Shown: positions 4,197-62,509 of the stretch, in pieces
How the letters are laid out: every line of letters starts with the position of its first letter
How positions within the stretch are numbered: position 1 is the first letter of the stretch
Assembly (NCBI GenBank): GCA_903939515.1
Contig: CAJAHH010000123.1
Location: forward strand, 29,106-93,105
Reading direction: 5' to 3'
Source: an uncultured Verrucomicrobiota bacterium
GTDB lineage: Bacteria; Verrucomicrobiota; Verrucomicrobiia; Limisphaerales; UBA9464
DNA: 64,000 nt
Program-made: the position numbers and the translations under genes
Notes under the pieces: generated by a model
What the model saw: only the letters and a program-made list of their open reading frames with translations
Told to the model about the DNA's origin: nothing
Database searches by the model: none

Positions 4197-5942
4197 ATGC
4201 TTTGGTCTCAAACGTTCATTCCGACCCTCAAGGAAACCCCCGCGGATGCAGAAATCGTATCCCATCAACTCTTGCTGCGTGCAGGGTTGGTTCGAAAGCT
4301 GACGGGTGGTTTGTACACGTTCCTGCCGCTGGGCCTGAAGGTGTTGCGCAAGATCGAGCAAATCATTCGCGAGGAGATGAACCGGGCCGGAGGTATCGAG
4401 GTGCTCATGCCGGCCTTGCAACCCATCGACATTTGGCAGCAGTCGGGGCGCTATGAGACGGCCTCCGGGGTGTTGTTCAAGGTGCGGGATTCGGCCCGCA
4501 AGGAGTGGGTCCTCGGGCCCACTCACGAAGAGGTCATCACCTCGCTCGCAGCCAACGAGCTGAACTCCTACCGGCAGCTCCCGAAGAATTTCTACCAAAT
4601 TCAGACCAAGTTCCGGGATGAGATCCGCCCGCGCTTTGGTTTGATGCGCGCTAAGGAGTTCTTGATGAAGGACGCCTATTCCTTCGACGCCACCGATGCT
4701 GGGGCGATGACGAGCTACCACAAGATGTACGACGCCTACACCCGTATCTTTGCCCGGTGCGGGTTGCAGGCCTTCCCCGTCGAAGCCGATACCGGGGTCA
4801 TTGGCGGCAATTATTCCCACGAGTTCATGGTGCCGGCCGAGACCGGTGAGAATGACGTGGTCTATTGTGAGTCCGGCAAGTATGCGGCCAACATCGAGAA
4901 GGCCGTCAGCCGTGGGCCCGCTGAAGCGACGCCTTCAGAATCCACCGGAACGGCGCCCGAGAAGTTCGCCACCCCGGGCGTGGTCACCATTGATGCCCTC
5001 TCGGCTTCCCCTTACGGAGTGTCGGCCCGGCACCAGGTCAAGACCCTAGTGTTCGTTGCCGATTCGAAGCCCATTCTGGTGCTCATCCGGGGAGACGACT
5101 CGCTCAATGAGGCCAAGCTCATGGCCAAGACGGGTGCGGTCCAAGTTCGTCAGGCGACTGCCGACGAGATCGTGGAGTTGCTCGGTGCCCGCCCGGGTTC
5201 TCTGGGCGCGGTCAGTGCCACCCTCAAGACGCCGGCGGTGCCCGTTTATGCCGACGAAGCCCTGCGCGGGGCCCGGGGCATGACCACAGGGGCCAATGAA
5301 GACGGTTTCCATCTGCGCCATGTCGAGGTGGACCGCGATCTGAAGGTCACGGCCTGGTACGATCTGCGCACCGTCAAGGTGGGCGAGCTGTGCGTAGAGA
5401 CCGCTCAACCCCTGAAGATCCGCCGGGCGATCGAAGTGGGGCACGTCTTCAAACTGGGGACCAAATATTCGGAGAAGCTCAATGCCACCTTCTTGGCTGA
5501 GGATGGTTCCCGCCATCCGGCGGTGATGGGTTGCTACGGCATTGGCGTGACCCGGACGCTTCAGGCCGTCATCGAGCAGTGCAATGACAAGGACGGCATC
5601 CGTTGGCCCGTGAGCGTAGCGCCCTTCACGGTGTGCATCACGCCGCTGGCGGTGGCGCCCGAGAGTCAGCCGATGACACTGGCCCGTGAATTGGCCGCCA
5701 CTCTGGAAGCCGCAGGCATTGAGGCCATTCTGGATGACCGCGATGAGCGTCCGGGCGTGAAGTTCAAGGACAGCGAATTGGTGGGATTCCCGCTGCGGGT
5801 GAATCTGGGGGAGAAATCGCTGGCTAAGGGCGAGATCGAGCTCAAGCCGCGCGGAGGCACGATGCGCATGGTTCCCATCGCCGATGCCGCCGCCGAGGTG
5901 ATCGCCTGGGTTCGCGCCGAATCAGCCCGTCTGCAAGGCTGA
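4197..5942 (+). CDS. proS: Proline--tRNA ligase (bacterial type with editing insertion)
   Basis: N-terminus MLWSQTFIPTLKETPADAEIVSHQLLLRAG from ATG 4197. Class II motifs FRDEIRPRFGLMRAKEFLMKDAYSF and GCYGIGVTR. The track ORF starts upstream at 4140. Confidence 0.95.
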   Translation: MLWSQTFIPTLKETPADAEIVSHQLLLRAGLVRKLTGGLYTFLPLGLKVLRKIEQIIREEMNRAGGIEVLMPALQPIDIWQQSGRYETASGVLFKVRDSARKEWVLGPTHEEVITSLAANELNSYRQLPKNFYQIQTKFRDEIRPRFGLMRAKEFLMKDAYSFDATDAGAMTSYHKMYDAYTRIFARCGLQAFPVEADTGVIGGNYSHEFMVPAETGENDVVYCESGKYAANIEKAVSRGPAEATPSESTGTAPEKFATPGVVTIDALSASPYGVSARHQVKTLVFVADSKPILVLIRGDDSLNEAKLMAKTGAVQVRQATADEIVELLGARPGSLGAVSATLKTPAVPVYADEALRGARGMTTGANEDGFHLRHVEVDRDLKVTAWYDLRTVKVGELCVETAQPLKIRRAIEVGHVFKLGTKYSEKLNATFLAEDGSRHPAVMGCYGIGVTRTLQAVIEQCNDKDGIRWPVSVAPFTVCITPLAVAPESQPMTLARELAATLEAAGIEAILDDRDERPGVKFKDSELVGFPLRVNLGEKSLAKGEIELKPRGGTMRMVPIADAAAEVIAWVRAESARLQG

Positions 5943-17232: not shown

Positions 17233-17307
17233 TGGCGACCCCACGGGGAATCGAACCCCGGTTACTGCCGTGAAAGGGCGGTGTCCTAACCGCTAGACGA
17301 TGGGGTC
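17233..17307 (-). tRNA. tRNA-Glu (anticodon UUC)
   Basis: Reverse complement GACCCCATCGTCTAGCGGTTAGGACACCGCCCTTTCACGGCAGTAACCGGGGTTCGATTCCCCGTGGGGTCGCCA. It folds as a cloverleaf with anticodon loop CTTTCAC and an encoded CCA. Confidence 0.9.
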
Positions 17308-17390
17308 TAAAAGAGCGGCGTGTCTTTCGCAGACTATCGCCATAATTGTCACGCTATAAATTCGTGCTTTAAATTTACGCCATAAATAAC

Positions 17391-17465
17391 TGGTGGGTCG
17401 GCAGGGATTTGAACCCTGGACCAACGGCTTAAAAGGCCGCTGCTCTACCGCTGAGCTACCGACCC
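17391..17465 (-). tRNA. tRNA-Lys (anticodon UUU)
   Basis: Reverse complement GGGTCGGTAGCTCAGCGGTAGAGCAGCGGCCTTTTAAGCCGTTGGTCCAGGGTTCAAATCCCTGCCGACCCACCA. Acceptor stem GGGTCGG/CCGACCC, anticodon loop CTTTTAA, encoded CCA. Confidence 0.9.
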
Positions 17466-56913: not shown

Positions 56914-59900
56914 TCAAGGGCTGGCATAGCTGGGAGCGGTCCACTGCCGATACCGGCCGGACCCGTTGGTTACGGTACCTAGCCCTCGAAGCCGGAAGAT
57001 TTTGCCGCTGGCACTGGATTCCAGGCGGAGTCGCGTGGTCTCCGGTGGGAGTTCTTGGACTTGTGTCCACAGGGCGGAGTCGTTGGCGGGGCCCGAATCG
57101 ATGCGGTATCCGCCGGGGGCCTCGGGCGAGGCGTTCCAGGTGAGTTCGGTGACGCCGGCTTGGTTTTTGGCTTTGAACGCCGATGGGGCCTGGAGGGGGT
57201 GTTCTAGCAAGCAGGGGTCCCCCAGCAAGTAGGTGAGTCGAGCATTCACCGAGCCGTTACGTTCGGCCGAATCGGTGAGCAGGGCGTGGACCGGTGCCCC
57301 GGCGTGCACACGGTCGGTGATCCAAGGCGCGAAGGCGTAAGCCGTGCCGGCCAGCAGCACCGAGTTCTCGGAGGCGAGGCAGGTTCGCAAGAAGTCTTCG
57401 CCATAGCCGCTGTACCACTGGCCGAGAAAGGAGCCGAAGGCGAAGAGGAAGGCGACCCGTGGGATATCTCCCGGCCGTTTCCAGGCGACATTCTTGGCGA
57501 AGTGACTGTGTCCGGGCTTGGCCGCCCCGGTCATACCCAAGACCCCGAAATGCGAGTAGTCGGTCTGGAAGCCCCAGCGAATGTTCGGTCCATCCTGGAA
57601 GAGGTCGGTATTCCAAGCCGCCGCCGTCAGAAGTTCTAATTGGCCCAAGCGTGGCGCGATGTGCACCAGATTCCGATCTACTAGAGCGCCCAAGACATTC
57701 GCGTATCCAATCGCCGAGTCTTGGAAAGGGAGCAGGCCGCGTCGATAACGTCCGACCTTGTCAAAGTATCGGTCCAGTAGGGCAACCTCGACTTCGAGGG
57801 CACTTTTTGGGTTTCCCTTAAGATCAGCAAATCGGCTGTCGAAGTGGGAGAGTCGAGCAAAGTCGATGCGCCCCAGCGGTACCTCGATGCGCCCGGCGCT
57901 GCCGTCGGGCTCTCGGGGGAGTTCGTTCTGGTCCCAGCGGCCATCGCCCGCCTCGTTGCCCAGGATGCAGTAGGCGCATTGGCTGCGCGGGCAATCCGGG
58001 CAGCCGGTCTTGAAGGATTGGGTGTCGGTCCAGGTTCCGGTGAGGTCGCCGTAGAAGAGGTCGGCCGGCCAGGCTCCCAGGTGGATGCCCGCCGGATCTT
58101 GGCAATTCACATGGCCATCTTCAGCGGCCCAACCGCTTTGGGGAATGGTGGGGTGCCCGATGAGCACCGCGACCTGGGTGCGCCCCGGATGGGCCTCGTA
58201 CTCGCGGCGGATGAGGGCCTTGATGGCTAGGAGATTGGCCTTGTTCCGCGGGAGCGCCTCAGCGTCGTAGCGTCGGCAGTCGAAGTCTTGCGGGTCGGCG
58301 TCCACGTGGCGCGGCACGCGGTGCTGGACGACTTCCCAGCCGTCGGCGATGAGGTCAGCCCGGTAGCGGGCCAAACTTCCGGTGAGGCGTTCAGCGAGGG
58401 TGTCATCTACGAGTAACAGGGCCCGGCCCCGGTCTGCTGGGGGTGGGGTGTCATGAGCCACGCAGAGTTCGAGTGGCGGCCGGCTGTTGCGTAAGACTCG
58501 GTAACCGTAGGTCTGCCCGGATCGTACGGTCGTGTCAGTAAAGACCGAGGTGCGGGCGTCGCGATCGATGATTTCCCAAGCAGTGGGATTGGGCCCCCAG
58601 GACTTCCGTGCGATGGGATAGAAGCCACCCTGATCGCCGTCGCCTTCCCAGTCGCGTTGGAAGGTGAGTCGGATGCCCGAGGCAAGAGACTCCCCGGAAA
58701 TTCGGTCGGTGTCGTCGGCCTCGAGCGGGCGATGATGGCTCCGGACGATGCCTTCCGGTGGGCCGGGGTGACCCAGGCTCCCGGGCAGCAGGTGGTTGCG
58801 CAGGAGGACCCGGTCTAGTCGGCCAAGCGCGGGGGATTGACCGTCGAGGGCGTTGCCCAGGCTGAAGGTGTTGAGCTCATTACGAGGGCTGGGCGGACGT
58901 GAGTGGGACTCCCGAGGGAGCTGCTCGAAGGTGTCGGCGGTGAAGGAGAGTTGGAAGGTCCAGTTGGTCCGTCCCGTGAAGGGGCGGGACTGAGTGGCCG
59001 ACCGGGGCAGCGGCGACCAGAGGGTTTGTTGGAAGTTCTCGGAGATCCGAGTGAGTGCCAGTCGGCGGCCCGAGGCATCGATGCTCACACGCAATCCCGG
59101 GGTCTCCAACAGGACGCAGTCGGCACCGGGAGCGTCGTTGGTCGCGCCATGGAACCAGTCGGGCGAGTAGTCGAGGGCGATCGATCCGTGGAGTGGCTGA
59201 AGATTGGTGCGGGTGACTCCGTCGCGGTTCCAGATCAGCGGGTAGAGCAGTACCTGCCCAGAACGGTGAAACCCCGCCGCGCTTCGGTCGAAGGAGGGTT
59301 CGCGCGAGGCCGAGGATCCGGGCAGGGGCATCGCGCCGTCCCCGGACTCGAAACGGTCGGTATCGAATCCGAAGGAAGCGAGAACGCGGGGCTGGGCGCT
59401 GAAGCGGTTTTCCGGATCGGTCCCGTCGAGTAATTCGTCCAAGTCGCTGCGCCCGTCCCCGTCCCGATCACCGCGGCCGGGGACTGGGCGTTTTTTTGGA
59501 GCGGCCGTCGATTGCGGCACCTCTGTTTCGCGCCTCAGCGAGCCCGACCCGATCCAGCGGAATCCTCGGGCTGGAGTTTCGTGAAGCACCGTCGCCGTCG
59601 CCACCGTCACCACAGCATTGCTGACGGTTGTTCCCTCAACCCAGTAGTCGATGGGCCAGTGGTGGAACCCCAGTTTGATAGGGTTGAGGCCCCCGGCTTC
59701 CGGCAGTGCTTGGTCCCGGATGGCACGGGGTGTCAGGTAGAGAGTTTGGGTGACGAGGGGTGGCAACAGTTCTGGGGGCAAGACGGTCATCGCTGGAAGA
59801 GCCACGGCCAATTCGGGGTCCAGCAGGCCGTGGCCGAACCCAGGGCGGATCCGACGGCTGCCCGGGGGCAGGTAGAGCGAGCCCGCGGCCTCAACAAAGG

Positions 59901-60768
59901 CATCGGTGATCGAGATCGGAATGACGGCATTGGGGTTACCCTCGGTCGAGGCATGGGTGTAGCCTTGCACATCGGCCACTTCCCCAATCACGCAGCGCAG
60001 CAATTCGAGGGTGGAATCCGCCGGTTTGCGGTTGAGGACCTCGGCGCGGGCGATGGTGAGTTGCTGGCCATTGACCCGGCTCGATCTGAGGTCGCTGAAG
60101 GGTGCCTTGACCCGATGGAAGAGGCCGTTGCGCAGCGACAGGGTGCTGGTGGTGGATTCGATGCCGACCTCGCAATGCTGCACCTGGAAATGCCACAGCG
60201 CGGCGGTCGTTCCGGTCCAACGCAGGGCCACCCGGGCGTGGGAGATACGGAAATCATTCCAGCGAGACTGCCCTGACTCGAGGCGTGCGCCATTGACCGA
60301 CAAGGCGACGTCCGCGTAGGGGCCTGAGGAAGGTTTACCTGTCGAGCCCGGCACGAGTTCTCCCACCGAATCGTCGTCGGAGGCCGTGAATACGATGGGT
60401 GCCTCGGGTGTGGCTTGCCAGGAAACCCGGGCGTCTTTCCCCAACTCCAATCCCGCCGAACGCCCCGGCTGGAACTTCAGCACGCAGCCAGCCTCAAAGC
60501 GCACGGAGCCTTCCAAGCGGACCGGTCCCGCGACTAGGTAGGTGACTCCAGCCCGGAAGGTGCGGTCCTTGCCTGGAACAACCTCGACGGGTGCCGACAA
60601 AATCGGCAGCCAGCCAGCCAACAGGCACAGTAGCGTGGGCCAACGAAGCCAAGTCGCTAGACCAGGATGATAATGACTCACCCTTGCTATTCCCGGACCG
60701 TTTTGGATGGGCCTGCGGTCTGTCATCAGTGGCAACGCTGAGCTTCGTCGAAGCTGCGGCCAAGGCAA
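56914..60768 (-). CDS. Large secreted multidomain protein (beta-helix-like N-terminus, Ca-binding DxDxD motif, LamG-like, FN3-like, C25/gingipain-like region)
   Basis: 1284 aa with a signal/TM segment WPTLLCLLAGWLPILSA. DRDGDGRSDLDELLDGTDPEN. A GSIALDYSPDWF LamG-like edge. ALLLVDDTLAERL..YRADLIADGWEV..QVAVLIGHPTIPQSGW. A C-terminal FN3-like GVTELTWNASPEAPGGYRI. An alternative start lies at 60726. Confidence 0.75.
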   Translation of the reverse strand: MPWPQLRRSSALPLMTDRRPIQNGPGIARVSHYHPGLATWLRWPTLLCLLAGWLPILSAPVEVVPGKDRTFRAGVTYLVAGPVRLEGSVRFEAGCVLKFQPGRSAGLELGKDARVSWQATPEAPIVFTASDDDSVGELVPGSTGKPSSGPYADVALSVNGARLESGQSRWNDFRISHARVALRWTGTTAALWHFQVQHCEVGIESTTSTLSLRNGLFHRVKAPFSDLRSSRVNGQQLTIARAEVLNRKPADSTLELLRCVIGEVADVQGYTHASTEGNPNAVIPISITDAFVEAAGSLYLPPGSRRIRPGFGHGLLDPELAVALPAMTVLPPELLPPLVTQTLYLTPRAIRDQALPEAGGLNPIKLGFHHWPIDYWVEGTTVSNAVVTVATATVLHETPARGFRWIGSGSLRRETEVPQSTAAPKKRPVPGRGDRDGDGRSDLDELLDGTDPENRFSAQPRVLASFGFDTDRFESGDGAMPLPGSSASREPSFDRSAAGFHRSGQVLLYPLIWNRDGVTRTNLQPLHGSIALDYSPDWFHGATNDAPGADCVLLETPGLRVSIDASGRRLALTRISENFQQTLWSPLPRSATQSRPFTGRTNWTFQLSFTADTFEQLPRESHSRPPSPRNELNTFSLGNALDGQSPALGRLDRVLLRNHLLPGSLGHPGPPEGIVRSHHRPLEADDTDRISGESLASGIRLTFQRDWEGDGDQGGFYPIARKSWGPNPTAWEIIDRDARTSVFTDTTVRSGQTYGYRVLRNSRPPLELCVAHDTPPPADRGRALLLVDDTLAERLTGSLARYRADLIADGWEVVQHRVPRHVDADPQDFDCRRYDAEALPRNKANLLAIKALIRREYEAHPGRTQVAVLIGHPTIPQSGWAAEDGHVNCQDPAGIHLGAWPADLFYGDLTGTWTDTQSFKTGCPDCPRSQCAYCILGNEAGDGRWDQNELPREPDGSAGRIEVPLGRIDFARLSHFDSRFADLKGNPKSALEVEVALLDRYFDKVGRYRRGLLPFQDSAIGYANVLGALVDRNLVHIAPRLGQLELLTAAAWNTDLFQDGPNIRWGFQTDYSHFGVLGMTGAAKPGHSHFAKNVAWKRPGDIPRVAFLFAFGSFLGQWYSGYGEDFLRTCLASENSVLLAGTAYAFAPWITDRVHAGAPVHALLTDSAERNGSVNARLTYLLGDPCLLEHPLQAPSAFKAKNQAGVTELTWNASPEAPGGYRIDSGPANDSALWTQVQELPPETTRLRLESSASGKIFRLRGLGTVTNGSGRYRQWTAPSYASP

Positions 60769-60833
60769 ACCGTCCTAGGCTCCGGTTCGAGCCATCTTGT
60801 GGTCGGTGGATGTTTGGGCTGCATTCCCGGGGT

Positions 60834-61035
60834 TGGCTCCGCGGGACCGCGCCTTGCCTGCAAGGCACCGCTTCACCGGTAAGCCCCCCTGTAGGCCGGG
60901 TCTCCTGACCCGGCGTCTGGAGCTCGCAGGAAGGCGCGGAAGGATGGGGTTTTAGCGCCCCGCGCTAGGGGATTTTGTTTTTGCCTTCAATGCTCGCTCC
61001 GGTGCGGTCCCGCTGCTGCCGCTGTGTGGGACCGC
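60834..61035 (+). repeat. Copy 1 of a ~200-bp hairpin-rich intergenic repeat
   Basis: Shares long identical blocks with copy 2: GGCTCCGCGGGACCGCGCCTTGCCTGCAAGGCACCGCTTCACCGGT, CTGTAGGCCGGGTCTCCTGACCCGGCGTCTGGAGCTCGCAGGAAGGCG and TTCAATGCTCGCTCCGG. Confidence 0.85.
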
Positions 61036-61155
61036 TGGCTATGTGCGGGGTGGTCGAGGATGGATTGGGGAATCTTTGGTTTATTATTCGTCGAGGGTTT
61101 TGTGTTCGGGTGAGGTTTGCGTTGGGGACGCTCGGGTGGGCTACCGGTTATGGGC

Positions 61156-61353
61156 TGGCTCCGCGGGACCGCGCCTTGCCTGCAAGGCACCGCTTCACCG
61201 GTGAGCCCCCTGTAGGCCGGGTCTCCTGACCCGGCGTCTGGAGCTCGCAGGAAGGCGGCAAGGGAGGATGGGGTTTTCGCGCGGTGCGCCAGGTTTTTTG
61301 GTGTTTGCATTCAATGCTCGCTCCGGCGCGGTCCCGCTGCCGCTGGAGGGACC
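61156..61353 (+). repeat. Copy 2 of a ~200-bp hairpin-rich intergenic repeat
   Basis: Same blocks, same orientation, about 322 bp downstream of copy 1. A 1-nt indel (CCCCCC vs CCCCC) and divergent linkers break any common reading frame. Confidence 0.85.
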
Positions 61354-61570
61354 GTTGGGTGTGAATGAATTCCATCGCCGGAGGCGATTGTGAAAAGGGC
61401 TTTCGAGCCTCAATCCTCTCGCCCCGCTTTTCATTCGCTCGGTTATCACCCCCATGAAGCCCCACCGCTGCGGCCTAGGCTCGACTTTGCGAGAAGGGGT
61501 TGGTAATTCCTCGGGCCACGACCGCCCCGAAGTACGCCGTTGAGCACGGGGTGGAGTATGCAGGCTGACA

Positions 61571-62509
61571 ATGAAAACACTTTCTATCTTCCTATTGTCC
61601 GGCGTTCTGGCCGGTTCAGTGCTGGGGCAGAACAACGCCGTCAAGGTGCCTTCAGCCCCCGCTTCAGGCGCTTCCACCAACGCACCGGCTGCCGATCCCG
61701 GGGCCGGCAAGTTTAAGACCGATCTCGAGAAGCACAGCTACGCCATGGGTGTGCTCTTGGCTGGAGACATCAAGCGCCAGTTGTCGCGCGGCAGCTACGA
61801 GCACGATGCCGAGATTGTCATCAAGGCGTTCTCAGAGGCGCTCCGAGGCAAGCCGACGGTGATCACGGACGGTGAGGCCAATATCATCTTGCGGAACTAC
61901 AGCACCGAGATTCGCAAAAAATCTGAGGAAAAGCGCAAGGAAGACGGTGAGAAGGCCAAGGTGGTGGGTGAGGCATTCCTGACGGCCAACAAGGCCAAGG
62001 AAGGCGTCAAGGTTACGGCCAGTGGTTTGCAGTACAAGGTGCTCAAGGCGGCTGAGGGCGCTAAGGCCAAGGGCGATGATGTCGTTGAGGTGCATTACCG
62101 CGGAACGCTGGTCGATGGGACCGAGTTCGACAGTTCCTACACTCGCGGACAGCCAGCCAGCTTTGGTCTGAGCCGGGTGATCAAGGGATGGACCGAAGGC
62201 TTGCAACTCATGACGGTGGGTTCGAAGTACCAGTTTGTGATTCCTTCGGATCTGGCTTACGGACAGAACGGTTCTCCGCCGAAGATCCCGCCCCATTCCA
62301 CCCTCATCTTCGAGGTGGACTTGCTGAACGTGAAGCCGCAAGTCGCGCCGCCGCTGCCCAGCAGCGTTACCAGCGACATCATCAAGGTTCCGAGCGCCGA
62401 TGAGTTGAAAAAGGGTGCCCAGATCGAGGTGATCAAGTCTACCGATGCCGAGCGCCTCCAGAAGGAAGCCGCTGAGCAAAAGAAGAAGGCCGACGTTCCC
62501 AAGAAATAA
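61571..62509 (+). CDS. FKBP-type peptidyl-prolyl cis-trans isomerase (Mip/FkpA-like, secreted)
   Basis: Signal peptide MKTLSIFLLSGVLAGSVLG. VHYRGTLVDGTEFDSSY, GWTEGLQLM and LIFEVDLLNV. Confidence 0.9.
   Translation: MKTLSIFLLSGVLAGSVLGQNNAVKVPSAPASGASTNAPAADPGAGKFKTDLEKHSYAMGVLLAGDIKRQLSRGSYEHDAEIVIKAFSEALRGKPTVITDGEANIILRNYSTEIRKKSEEKRKEDGEKAKVVGEAFLTANKAKEGVKVTASGLQYKVLKAAEGAKAKGDDVVEVHYRGTLVDGTEFDSSYTRGQPASFGLSRVIKGWTEGLQLMTVGSKYQFVIPSDLAYGQNGSPPKIPPHSTLIFEVDLLNVKPQVAPPLPSSVTSDIIKVPSADELKKGAQIEVIKSTDAERLQKEAAEQKKKADVPKK

Follow-up and report, generated by a model that had tools for sequence, protein, structure and literature searches.

Two tandem copies of a structured intergenic repeat upstream of an FKBP gene in an uncultured Verrucomicrobiota bacterium

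The locus and its two copies

The stretch of DNA considered here (64,000 nucleotides of contig CAJAHH010000123.1 from an uncultured Verrucomicrobiota bacterium; below, the window) contains an 800-bp intergenic gap in which an element of ~210 bp is found twice in direct orientation, at 60830-61040 and 61152-61362, with an offset of 321-324 bp. The gap is bordered on the left by a gene for a protein of 1270/1284 amino acids (aa) on the minus strand (56914-60768) and on the right by the gene of a periplasmic FKBP_N/FKBP_C isomerase on the plus strand (61571-62509; below, the FKBP gene). An earlier note on this DNA had described the pair, which is real, with ~200 bp per copy, and proposed either paired small RNA (sRNA) genes or a structured repeat; the data assembled below favor the repeat. 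Aligned with each other, the copies are 97% identical over the 5′ 59 nt, 100% over the following 52 nt, and 82% over the 3′ 87 nt, and three element probes of 17-40 nt have two exact occurrences each in the 64-kb window against 0-0.03 expected.

Each copy is bracketed by a perfect or near-perfect 13-bp inverted repeat of the form GCGGGACCGCGCC ... GG(T/C)GCGGTCCCGC, with arms 147-149 nt apart; these arms, written GCGGGACCGCGCC / GGYGCGGTCCCGC in the window and absent from the earlier note, form the defining helix of the family described below. The smaller hairpins which that note did list (GCCTTG-CCTG-CAAGGC, GCCGGGTC-TCCT-GACCCGGC and GCGGTCCC-loop-GGGACCG) are all present, together with the TTCAATGCTCGCTCCGG block and the 1-nt indel in a C-run. 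The first of them, at 60851-66, starts within the 5′ arm of copy 1, 3 nt before the insert that completes it. As to the last one, the sequence downstream of each copy (GGGACCGC or GGGACCG) is best read as the truncated 5′ arm of a next unit, since arrays of the family end in partial units (locus L010) and the hairpin is absent from L027 and from the first copy of L034. The features of the locus are as follows.

60783-61473, plus strand: clade-specific insert of 691 bp (both copies, 111-nt spacer and flanks) between the 1270/1284-aa gene and the FKBP gene
60835-61024, plus strand: copy 1 of the family unit (type A), composed of GGCTCC, 5′ arm, insert, core, apical hairpin, 3′ block, 3′ arm and tail
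60841-60853, plus strand: 5′ arm GCGGGACCGCGCC of copy 1 (helix P1), paired with 61001-61013 by 12 Watson-Crick pairs and one G-T pair
60854-60922, plus strand: insert of copy 1, not found in basic family units, holding the UCACCGGUAA segment, a GTAG-type repetitive extragenic palindrome (REP) and GTCTGGAG
60891-60914, plus strand: GTAG-type REP of copy 1, GTAG followed by GCCGGGTC-TCCT-GACCCGGC
60930-60988, plus strand: inner helix P2 of copy 1, GAAGGC (60930-35) with GCCTTC (60983-88), enclosing P3 and the T-run
60950-60970, plus strand: apical hairpin P3 of copy 1, TTTTAGCGC-CCC-GCGCTAGGG, with a T-run after it at 60973-60982
60989-61013, plus strand: conserved 3′ block AATGCTCGCTCC and 3′ arm GGTGCGGTCCCGC of copy 1, located by inverted-repeat search, window probes and unit alignment
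61028-61035, plus strand: GGGACCGC, making a local hairpin with the 3′ arm of copy 1
61040-61150, plus strand: 111-nt spacer, duplicated along with the unit
61157-61347, plus strand: copy 2 of the unit (nhmmer match 61241-61343)
61163-61175 and 61325-61337, plus strand: arms of copy 2, located by inverted-repeat search
61212-61235, plus strand: GTAG REP of copy 2
61251-56 and 61307-12, plus strand: P2 of copy 2, with one mismatch
61274-61293, plus strand: P3 of copy 2, with a T-run at 61294-61299
61348-61354, plus strand: GGGACCG of copy 2, read as the truncated arm of a next unit

A family of intergenic units

Relatives of the element were sought in two ways. Species-representative genomes, queried with a pattern of the second hairpin and GGAGC, gave three types of match: orthologous FKBP loci, a paralogue located between icd and rpoZ-smpB in the same metagenome-assembled genomes (MAGs; L022, L028), and arrays, built of a 92-nt unit in other Verrucomicrobia or of bare hairpins in Acidobacteria. 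A metagenome scan with the 3′ module of the element gave 64 loci with 82 exact pattern matches, and family units are present in 63 of the loci; L084 was rejected as a family member, being a chance match in coding sequence. When the fetched loci were searched with an nhmmer profile of the unit, 159 units were obtained, pooled over related metagenomic genomes. Copy 1 is matched at 60920-61019 by family profile positions 23-124, and no family unit beyond the two copies was found in the 64-kb window.

The family unit measures ~125-135 bp. Its 5′ half reads GGCTCC, arm GCGGGAYCGGTCC, TGCG, CTCGCAG and GAAGGC, the apical hairpin is CTTTCGCGC-TNT-GCGCGAGGG, and the 3′ half consists of GCCTTC, AATGCTCGCTCC, arm GGNCCGRTCCCGC and TGCCGCTGGGT. 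Basic units continue ...GGTCC-TGCG-CTCGCAGGAAGGC at the point where the window copies carry their insert, so that the latter have ~80 extra nt between the 5′ arm and CTCGCAGGAAGGC, comprising the first hairpin, the UCACCGGUGA palindrome and the GTAG REP. According to rough gene calls, units occupy ~45 distinct contexts, all of them intergenic, and no array lies inside a predicted gene. In arrays, as many as six units abut head-to-tail with a 134-137-bp period, and several arrays may occur on one contig. Many contigs end within units; the units thus break assemblies, which is of practical relevance for metagenome assembly and binning.

The absence of any known RNA family, remarked on in the earlier note, holds for the Rfam searches: no match was obtained at E≤10 in 60300-62000, nor at E≤1 for basic-unit arrays in L073, L091, L044 and L077, and the only matches at gathering score in the whole window are two tRNA genes at 17236-17465 on the minus strand. 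Scanning viral contigs with the family pattern yielded nothing, and no published description of this repeat family was found. Several known types of repeat or RNA were considered and rejected on anatomical grounds: integron attC sites or VCR (no RYYYAAC/GTTRRRY cores, no cassettes), CRISPR (unique spacers absent), RNA repeats of type III toxin-antitoxin systems (wrong period), and 6S RNA (no Rfam match, multi-copy). Coding repeats were likewise set aside, as the period of arrays is not constant (134 to 137 nt) and the window copies differ by a 1-nt indel, in agreement with the non-coding assignment made earlier.

Two further repeats accompany the units, a ~60-nt segment beginning with GGGGTCGGTCCCTCATATTTACACAAAAGGGGACACTCC and a reiterated GGGGACAGGCTGC. 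They are located between units in L046, L054, L060, L077, L094, L096 and L099 and in the flanks in L044, L045, L047, L086 and L095. The second fits the GGGGWSAS motif, described for inverted repeats that flank genes of TIRYT tyrosine transposases (PMC3733652).

A rod supported by covariation

The unit is an imperfect palindrome in which the 13-bp inverted arms (P1) enclose the inner helix P2 (GAAGGC/GCCTTC) and the apical GC hairpin P3, while CTCGCAGG and AATGCTCGCTCC form conserved unpaired blocks; beyond the arms it extends by ~6 nt and ~11 nt. The rod made of P1, P2 (with a 3-bp extension) and P3 was tested for covariation on an alignment (A3) of 102 distinct full-length units. Standard pairs are formed in 94.5% of cells against 27-54% in slid-register controls, and 13 pairs are changed on both sides, with 169 such cells, a value reached in 0 of 500 shuffles. 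In P1, 12-13 of the 13 positions are complementary in the window and 91.8% are paired over the 102 units; compensation in P2 proceeds nearly without intermediates (AU65/GC35 and GC71/AU31); P3 is uninformative because it is nearly invariant. The proposal that the element is structured is thereby substantiated, with a fold that differs from the one imagined at first: the partner of GGAGC in the minimum-energy fold of copy 1 is the 3′ GCTCC at 60996-61000 and not the 5′ GCTCC required by the enclosing helix of the earlier note, and copy 2 folds differently. This pairing is beyond the reach of covariation because it is invariant in orthologues. The orthologues of the FKBP locus are in general too alike for such a test, their 5′ halves being nearly invariant and the flanking coding DNA 91-97% identical.

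Folded alone, both window copies are closed by P1 on either strand. Single-sequence folding z-scores are weak (-1.5 to -3.2) and do not settle the strand; RNAalifold prefers the minus strand (-36.9 vs -22.3), while the mean single-sequence energy prefers the plus strand (-59.3 vs -53.9). Such covariation would be expected of hairpins in single-stranded DNA (ssDNA) just as much as of RNA.

Insertion and copy number at the FKBP locus of relatives

By its FKBP protein, the window belongs to an uncultured lineage of freshwater Verrucomicrobiota, and metagenomes with this locus include the JGI sample 3300020151 and the ENA BUCK21 samples. In sister species, whose FKBP proteins are 79-87% identical to that of the window, synteny is kept and the element is absent from the FKBP site, the distance from CCAAGGCAA to GGCTCGACTT being ~40 nt against ~700 nt in the window, which marks 60783-61473 as an insert specific to the clade. 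The whole 691-bp insert, and not the single unit, is bounded by the direct repeat CCTAGGCTC of 9 bp (60774-60782 and 61474-61482), which could be either the target-site duplication of the original insertion or a chance pair. In one species without the element at this site (L010), three units are located one intergenic region away, where the gap in the window is 48 nt.

Copy number is polymorphic among close relatives. On contigs encoding an identical FKBP protein, two copies are found as in the window (L002, L003) or a single one (L001, with a gap of 522 bp vs 844 bp), and among MAGs at the species level, with flanking genes 91-97% identical, L024, L029 and L038 have one copy and L027 and L034 have two. 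In L034 and L027, with their two copies, the 111-nt spacer shows 97-99% identity, and, as judged by eye, it resembles the inter-unit spacer of the tandem at the icd locus in L056. In L034 the two sequence variants have exchanged positions relative to the window, which indicates recombination between the copies.

Orientation of units follows GC skew

The orientation of units is random with respect to flanking genes and follows the local GC skew. With units masked, the G-rich strand of the unit coincides with the G-rich strand of flanking DNA in 51 of the 52 loci of at least 5 kb (mean skew +0.078); after merging loci that share any unique sequence, 17 of 18 regions remain concordant (p = 1.4e-4), and the same holds for skew at third codon positions (GC3) corrected for gene orientation. 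All arrays on any one contig lie on one strand. For the 92-nt REP units (type B) this polarity is not seen, two arrays being concordant and five discordant. In the window itself, skew is positive on the plus strand in 16 of 16 4-kb bins, whatever the orientation of genes, so the window lies within one replichore; decomposition of the third-position skew of its genes gives a coding-strand effect of about -0.12 and a strand effect of about +0.13. The leading strand is, as a general rule, G-rich, and by this rule the plus strand of the unit corresponds to the lagging-strand template.

The embedded GTAG REP and RAYT-like reading frames

GTAG REPs are defined by a terminal GTAG followed by a GC-rich stem-loop with a 6-13-bp stem, 20-40 bp overall, and have been reported in the PVC superphylum including Verrucomicrobia, e.g., Opitutus terrae (PMC3733652). 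The segment GTAGGCCGGGTCTCCTGACCCGGC, at 60891-60914 and 61212-61235, has this form, with GTAG, an 8-bp GC stem and a 4-nt loop. No further REP copies were found in the 64-kb window with up to three mismatches allowed, as compared to 3-9 copies within an 8-kb locus of certain other Verrucomicrobia MAGs. The core common to the window element and to the arrays in other Verrucomicrobia and Acidobacteria MAGs is TGTAG with GCCGGGTC-NNNN-GACCCGGC. The 92-nt unit also has GGAGC and GCCTTCAA in common with the window element, which hints at a common ancestry of the REP arrays and the rod family. Arrays of this unit (L020, L026, L031, L035-L037) contain the hairpin GCCGCGTG-AGGG-CACGCGGC, CCTACA..TGTAGG, the GTAG REP and GTCTGGAGCC-ATGCCTTCAA.

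Two RAYT-like open reading frames (ORFs) with an HUH motif (MPDHLHLIAH) are located inside arrays of the same GTAG REP class, L020:559-1323 on the minus strand and L037:1722-3098 on the plus strand. By phmmer, they match E. coli RayT (L103) at E = 1.9e-6 and 4.3e-5, respectively, and reach only E = 0.0068 for Pfam Y1_Tnp, below its cut-off; these two, both at REP-array loci, were the only ORFs matched by the RayT search. No RAYT-like ORF was found in the window or in the loci of its clade, and a Pfam scan of ten ORFs adjoining type-B REP arrays revealed no transposase. Both RAYT-like ORFs are broken in frame by REP copies, translated as a repeated ..ARSGDRAYMG..GDVGRVPSRGG.. string.

Comparison with known repeats

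In sequence, the rod family matches none of the REP clusters and bacterial interspersed mosaic elements (BIMEs), NIME, Correia, ERIC or derivatives of IS200/IS605, and it is set apart from all these systems by the joint occurrence of strong polarity, a conserved paired core and head-to-tail arrays of abutting units. The two REP segments of the window share the GTAG and stem-loop form with REP clusters and BIMEs, but the REP is here a mere passenger in a ~190-bp unit, whereas the family unit itself (arms, P2, P3) is devoid of GTAG, has 125-135 bp instead of 20-40 bp, and displays the skew polarity missing in type-B REP arrays. Like miniature inverted-repeat transposable elements (MITEs), the family has terminal inverted repeats, the 13-bp arms, and many dispersed copies; an autonomous partner with the same ends was not found, relatives of E. 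coli RayT being those sought in the fetched loci. The earlier note had named numerous dispersed copies with terminal inverted repeats and target-site duplications as the finding that would speak for a mobile repeat instead of an sRNA, and of these the dispersed copies and inverted arms are present, while no clear target-site duplication was seen.

ERIC, an imperfect palindrome of ~127 bp, is akin to the unit in size and shape. We know of no description of strong replication-strand polarity as a feature of the NIME, Correia or ERIC families. Loci of MIRU/VNTR type are dispersed and intergenic, with variable numbers of tandem units and copy-number polymorphism between strains, and the 1-6 tandem units per locus and the polymorphism described here are similar; MIRUs, however, are oriented with operons and partly translated, while units here are palindromic and oriented by GC skew. 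NIME and Correia elements form intergenic arrays of ~50-150-bp units with short inverted repeats at the borders and strain-variable number (PMC1797815). The architecture of intergenic arrays bounded by inverted repeats is thus alike, but the arms GCGGGAYCGNNCC / GGNNCGRTCCCGC have no similarity to dRS3 of NIME (ATTCCCN8GGGAAT), and in distinction from NIME, Correia and ERIC the inter-arm unit is conserved, paired into a rod and strictly head-to-tail. In single-strand transposition of IS200/IS605, the orientation of insertions is tied to the lagging-strand template (PMC5027513), and the hairpin-forming ends and strand-specific biology of these elements have counterparts in the rod and in the orientation bias deduced here from skew. 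They are distinguished by a Y1 transposase, which was not found beside rod units with the E. coli RayT query, by a target tetranucleotide and an asymmetry of left and right ends, neither of them evident in the rod units, and by the fact that abutting tandem arrays are atypical of IS200/IS605.

Weighing the explanations

Taken together, these observations make it probable (about 0.68 in our estimate) that freshwater Verrucomicrobiota have a lineage-specific family of ~125-135-bp intergenic DNA repeats to which both copies belong, and that the repeat is structured, probably propagated through ssDNA, and tandemly duplicated at this locus. Several points weigh against this view. The window contains only two units, the count of 159 being pooled across genomes, and the gene calls behind the orientation statistics are a GC3 heuristic. 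The enrichment of G in the leading strand is a general rule, and the direction of replication is read here from the skew itself. No transposase was found beside rod units in ~0.6 Mb of fetched loci, searched with E. coli RayT as the only query and with other transposase families left unsearched. Unit boundaries show no clear target-site duplication, the comparison of L010 (filled) with the window (empty) being uninformative in this respect; this, along with arrays that end in partial units, is more in keeping with slippage or recombination than with discrete transposition. The asymmetry of wobble pairs points both ways: 50 C.A against 26 G.T mismatches in P1 favor folding of the minus strand, and two invariant T.G pairs in P3 favor that of the plus strand. 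The strong conservation of the unpaired blocks across species could equally reflect a host function.

The last point leads to a rival account, in which the arrays are a polar DNA signal selected by the host, a hairpin recognized by a protein or by the replisome and functional in one orientation relative to fork movement, such as a signal for single-strand initiation or restart located on the template of the lagging strand, or an orienting element of KOPS or Chi type. Near-absolute agreement of orientation with GC skew, unpaired blocks that stay highly conserved between species and between subfamilies alongside covarying arms, and the failure of the E. coli RayT query to reveal an associated transposase would all suit it. 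We nevertheless consider it unlikely, as presence and copy number vary among close relatives at the same site, which is typical of dispensable repeats, the distribution is patchy with only two units in the 64 kb studied, no protein has emerged as a candidate for binding the motif, and known orienting motifs are short (8 bp) and not 130-bp rods.

Quite unlikely, in our opinion, is the other half of the earlier suggestion, namely, two independently transcribed plus-strand sRNA genes that end at the GC hairpin and T-run, with the family as a multi-copy sRNA family, for which co-transcribed CcsR/cuckoo RNAs and PrrF1/2 may serve as parallels. The hairpin with a T-run does stand in both window copies, 5-7 T are present in some subfamilies (L056, L090, L091), the structure is backed by covariation, and the element is non-coding (1-nt indel; period not a fixed multiple of three). 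The terminator scan, however, flags copy 1 alone (60950-60970 and its tail), one site against 1.6 expected by chance in the region, and leaves copy 2 (GCGC-GGT-GCGC, then TTTTTTGGTGTTTG) unflagged; the compensatory change claimed for the terminator stem was overstated, the central GCGC/GCGC being the same in both copies and copy 2 having a C-C mismatch where copy 1 has A-T. A GC-rich hairpin with a U-run directly after it, the form of an intrinsic terminator, is recorded for the window copies only. A T-run after P3 is shared by few subfamilies other than that of the window; in most units its place is taken by GGGGTGGGTTTGATCG, GGGGAGGGTTTGTTCG or similar, and in the orthologue L024 the run is degraded to GGTGGGTGGGTGTTTG. 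Moreover, conserved sequence (AATGCTCGCTCC and the 3′ arm) lies 3′ of the T-run and closes back on the 5′ end of the unit. No sigma-70-like promoter was found in the window by a scan that does not cover the promoter types of this phylum, and abutting units of arrays leave no room for promoters. Units are placed in either orientation relative to transcription of neighboring genes (divergent in 7 contexts, convergent in 6, co-directional on the same strand in 4 and on the opposite strand in 3), and an orientation that follows GC skew is unexpected for sRNA genes. The missing Rfam match and the lack of the element at the same locus in sister species also count against this account.

The third account, a cis-regulatory leader of the FKBP gene with tandem attenuators that alternate between arm-A:arm-B and arm-B:GGGACCG pairings, appears highly improbable. 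Its attractions are the common strand with FKBP, the end of the element ~220 nt upstream of the FKBP start, the existence of mutually exclusive helices, and a type A' copy at a similar distance upstream of rpoZ. Yet FKBP orthologues of sister species do without the element, the same unit adjoins unrelated genes in all orientations, and neither L027 nor the first copy of L034 has the GGGACCG partner downstream.

For the preferred reading, a DNA repeat probably propagated through ssDNA, the history of the locus may be envisaged as follows. The unit of the window has acquired the ~80-nt insert with the GTAG-type REP hairpin between its 5′ arm and core; the 322-bp segment of unit plus spacer would then have been duplicated in tandem, and recombination between the copies would later have altered their number to one or two per strain or species and swapped the variants. 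Spread or maintenance may be coupled to replication, the most plausible route being that one strand folds as a hairpin in ssDNA at the fork, as do substrates of IS200/IS605 and REP/RAYT systems, with slippage or unequal exchange building the arrays. If transcribed, either strand would form a stable rod, and P3 with the T-run of the window copies could terminate plus-strand transcription ahead of FKBP, possibly as a side effect and not as the reason for the sequence. A bolder version, which we regard as rather unlikely, would make the rod of 125-135 bp a new class of replication-polar structured repeat, which acts, or is propagated, in hairpin form on the lagging-strand template while this is single-stranded, either as the substrate of an unrecognized HUH-type enzyme or as a host signal maintained in arrays (such as a priming or restart site); a switch of orientation would be predicted at the origin and terminus.

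With the repeat reading, the window pair ceases to be a case of locus-specific regulatory RNAs, and a false lead is removed. In exchange, a repeat family is defined in an abundant, uncultured lineage of freshwater Verrucomicrobia, with a covariation-supported rod, modular inserts and a strong link between orientation and strand composition; the modularity is illustrated by a GTAG REP residing inside a larger palindrome. If the polarity reflects replication, the family would naturally mark how replichores are oriented in fragmented MAGs and would provide a candidate system for ssDNA-based repeat propagation outside Proteobacteria.

Further observations around the FKBP locus

The record of L034 (CAMDDW010000052.1) is entitled as a MAG of Akkermansia muciniphila, yet it is ~94% identical to the window locus across FKBP and its neighbors, and its label or binning is probably wrong. 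In L012 (4317-5830), a more distant relative whose FKBP is 71% identical, an integrase-like gene, a gene with a SocA_Panacea domain and an apparent tRNA gene (minus strand, ~5740-5815) are situated upstream of FKBP, which suggests an element integrated at a tRNA gene beside it. The motif CTCGACTT (61480-61487 in the window), ~90 nt 5′ of the FKBP start codon, is kept in every relative examined (L004, L010, L012, L015 and L018), whether the repeat is present or not, and may be regarded as a candidate element of the FKBP promoter or operator.

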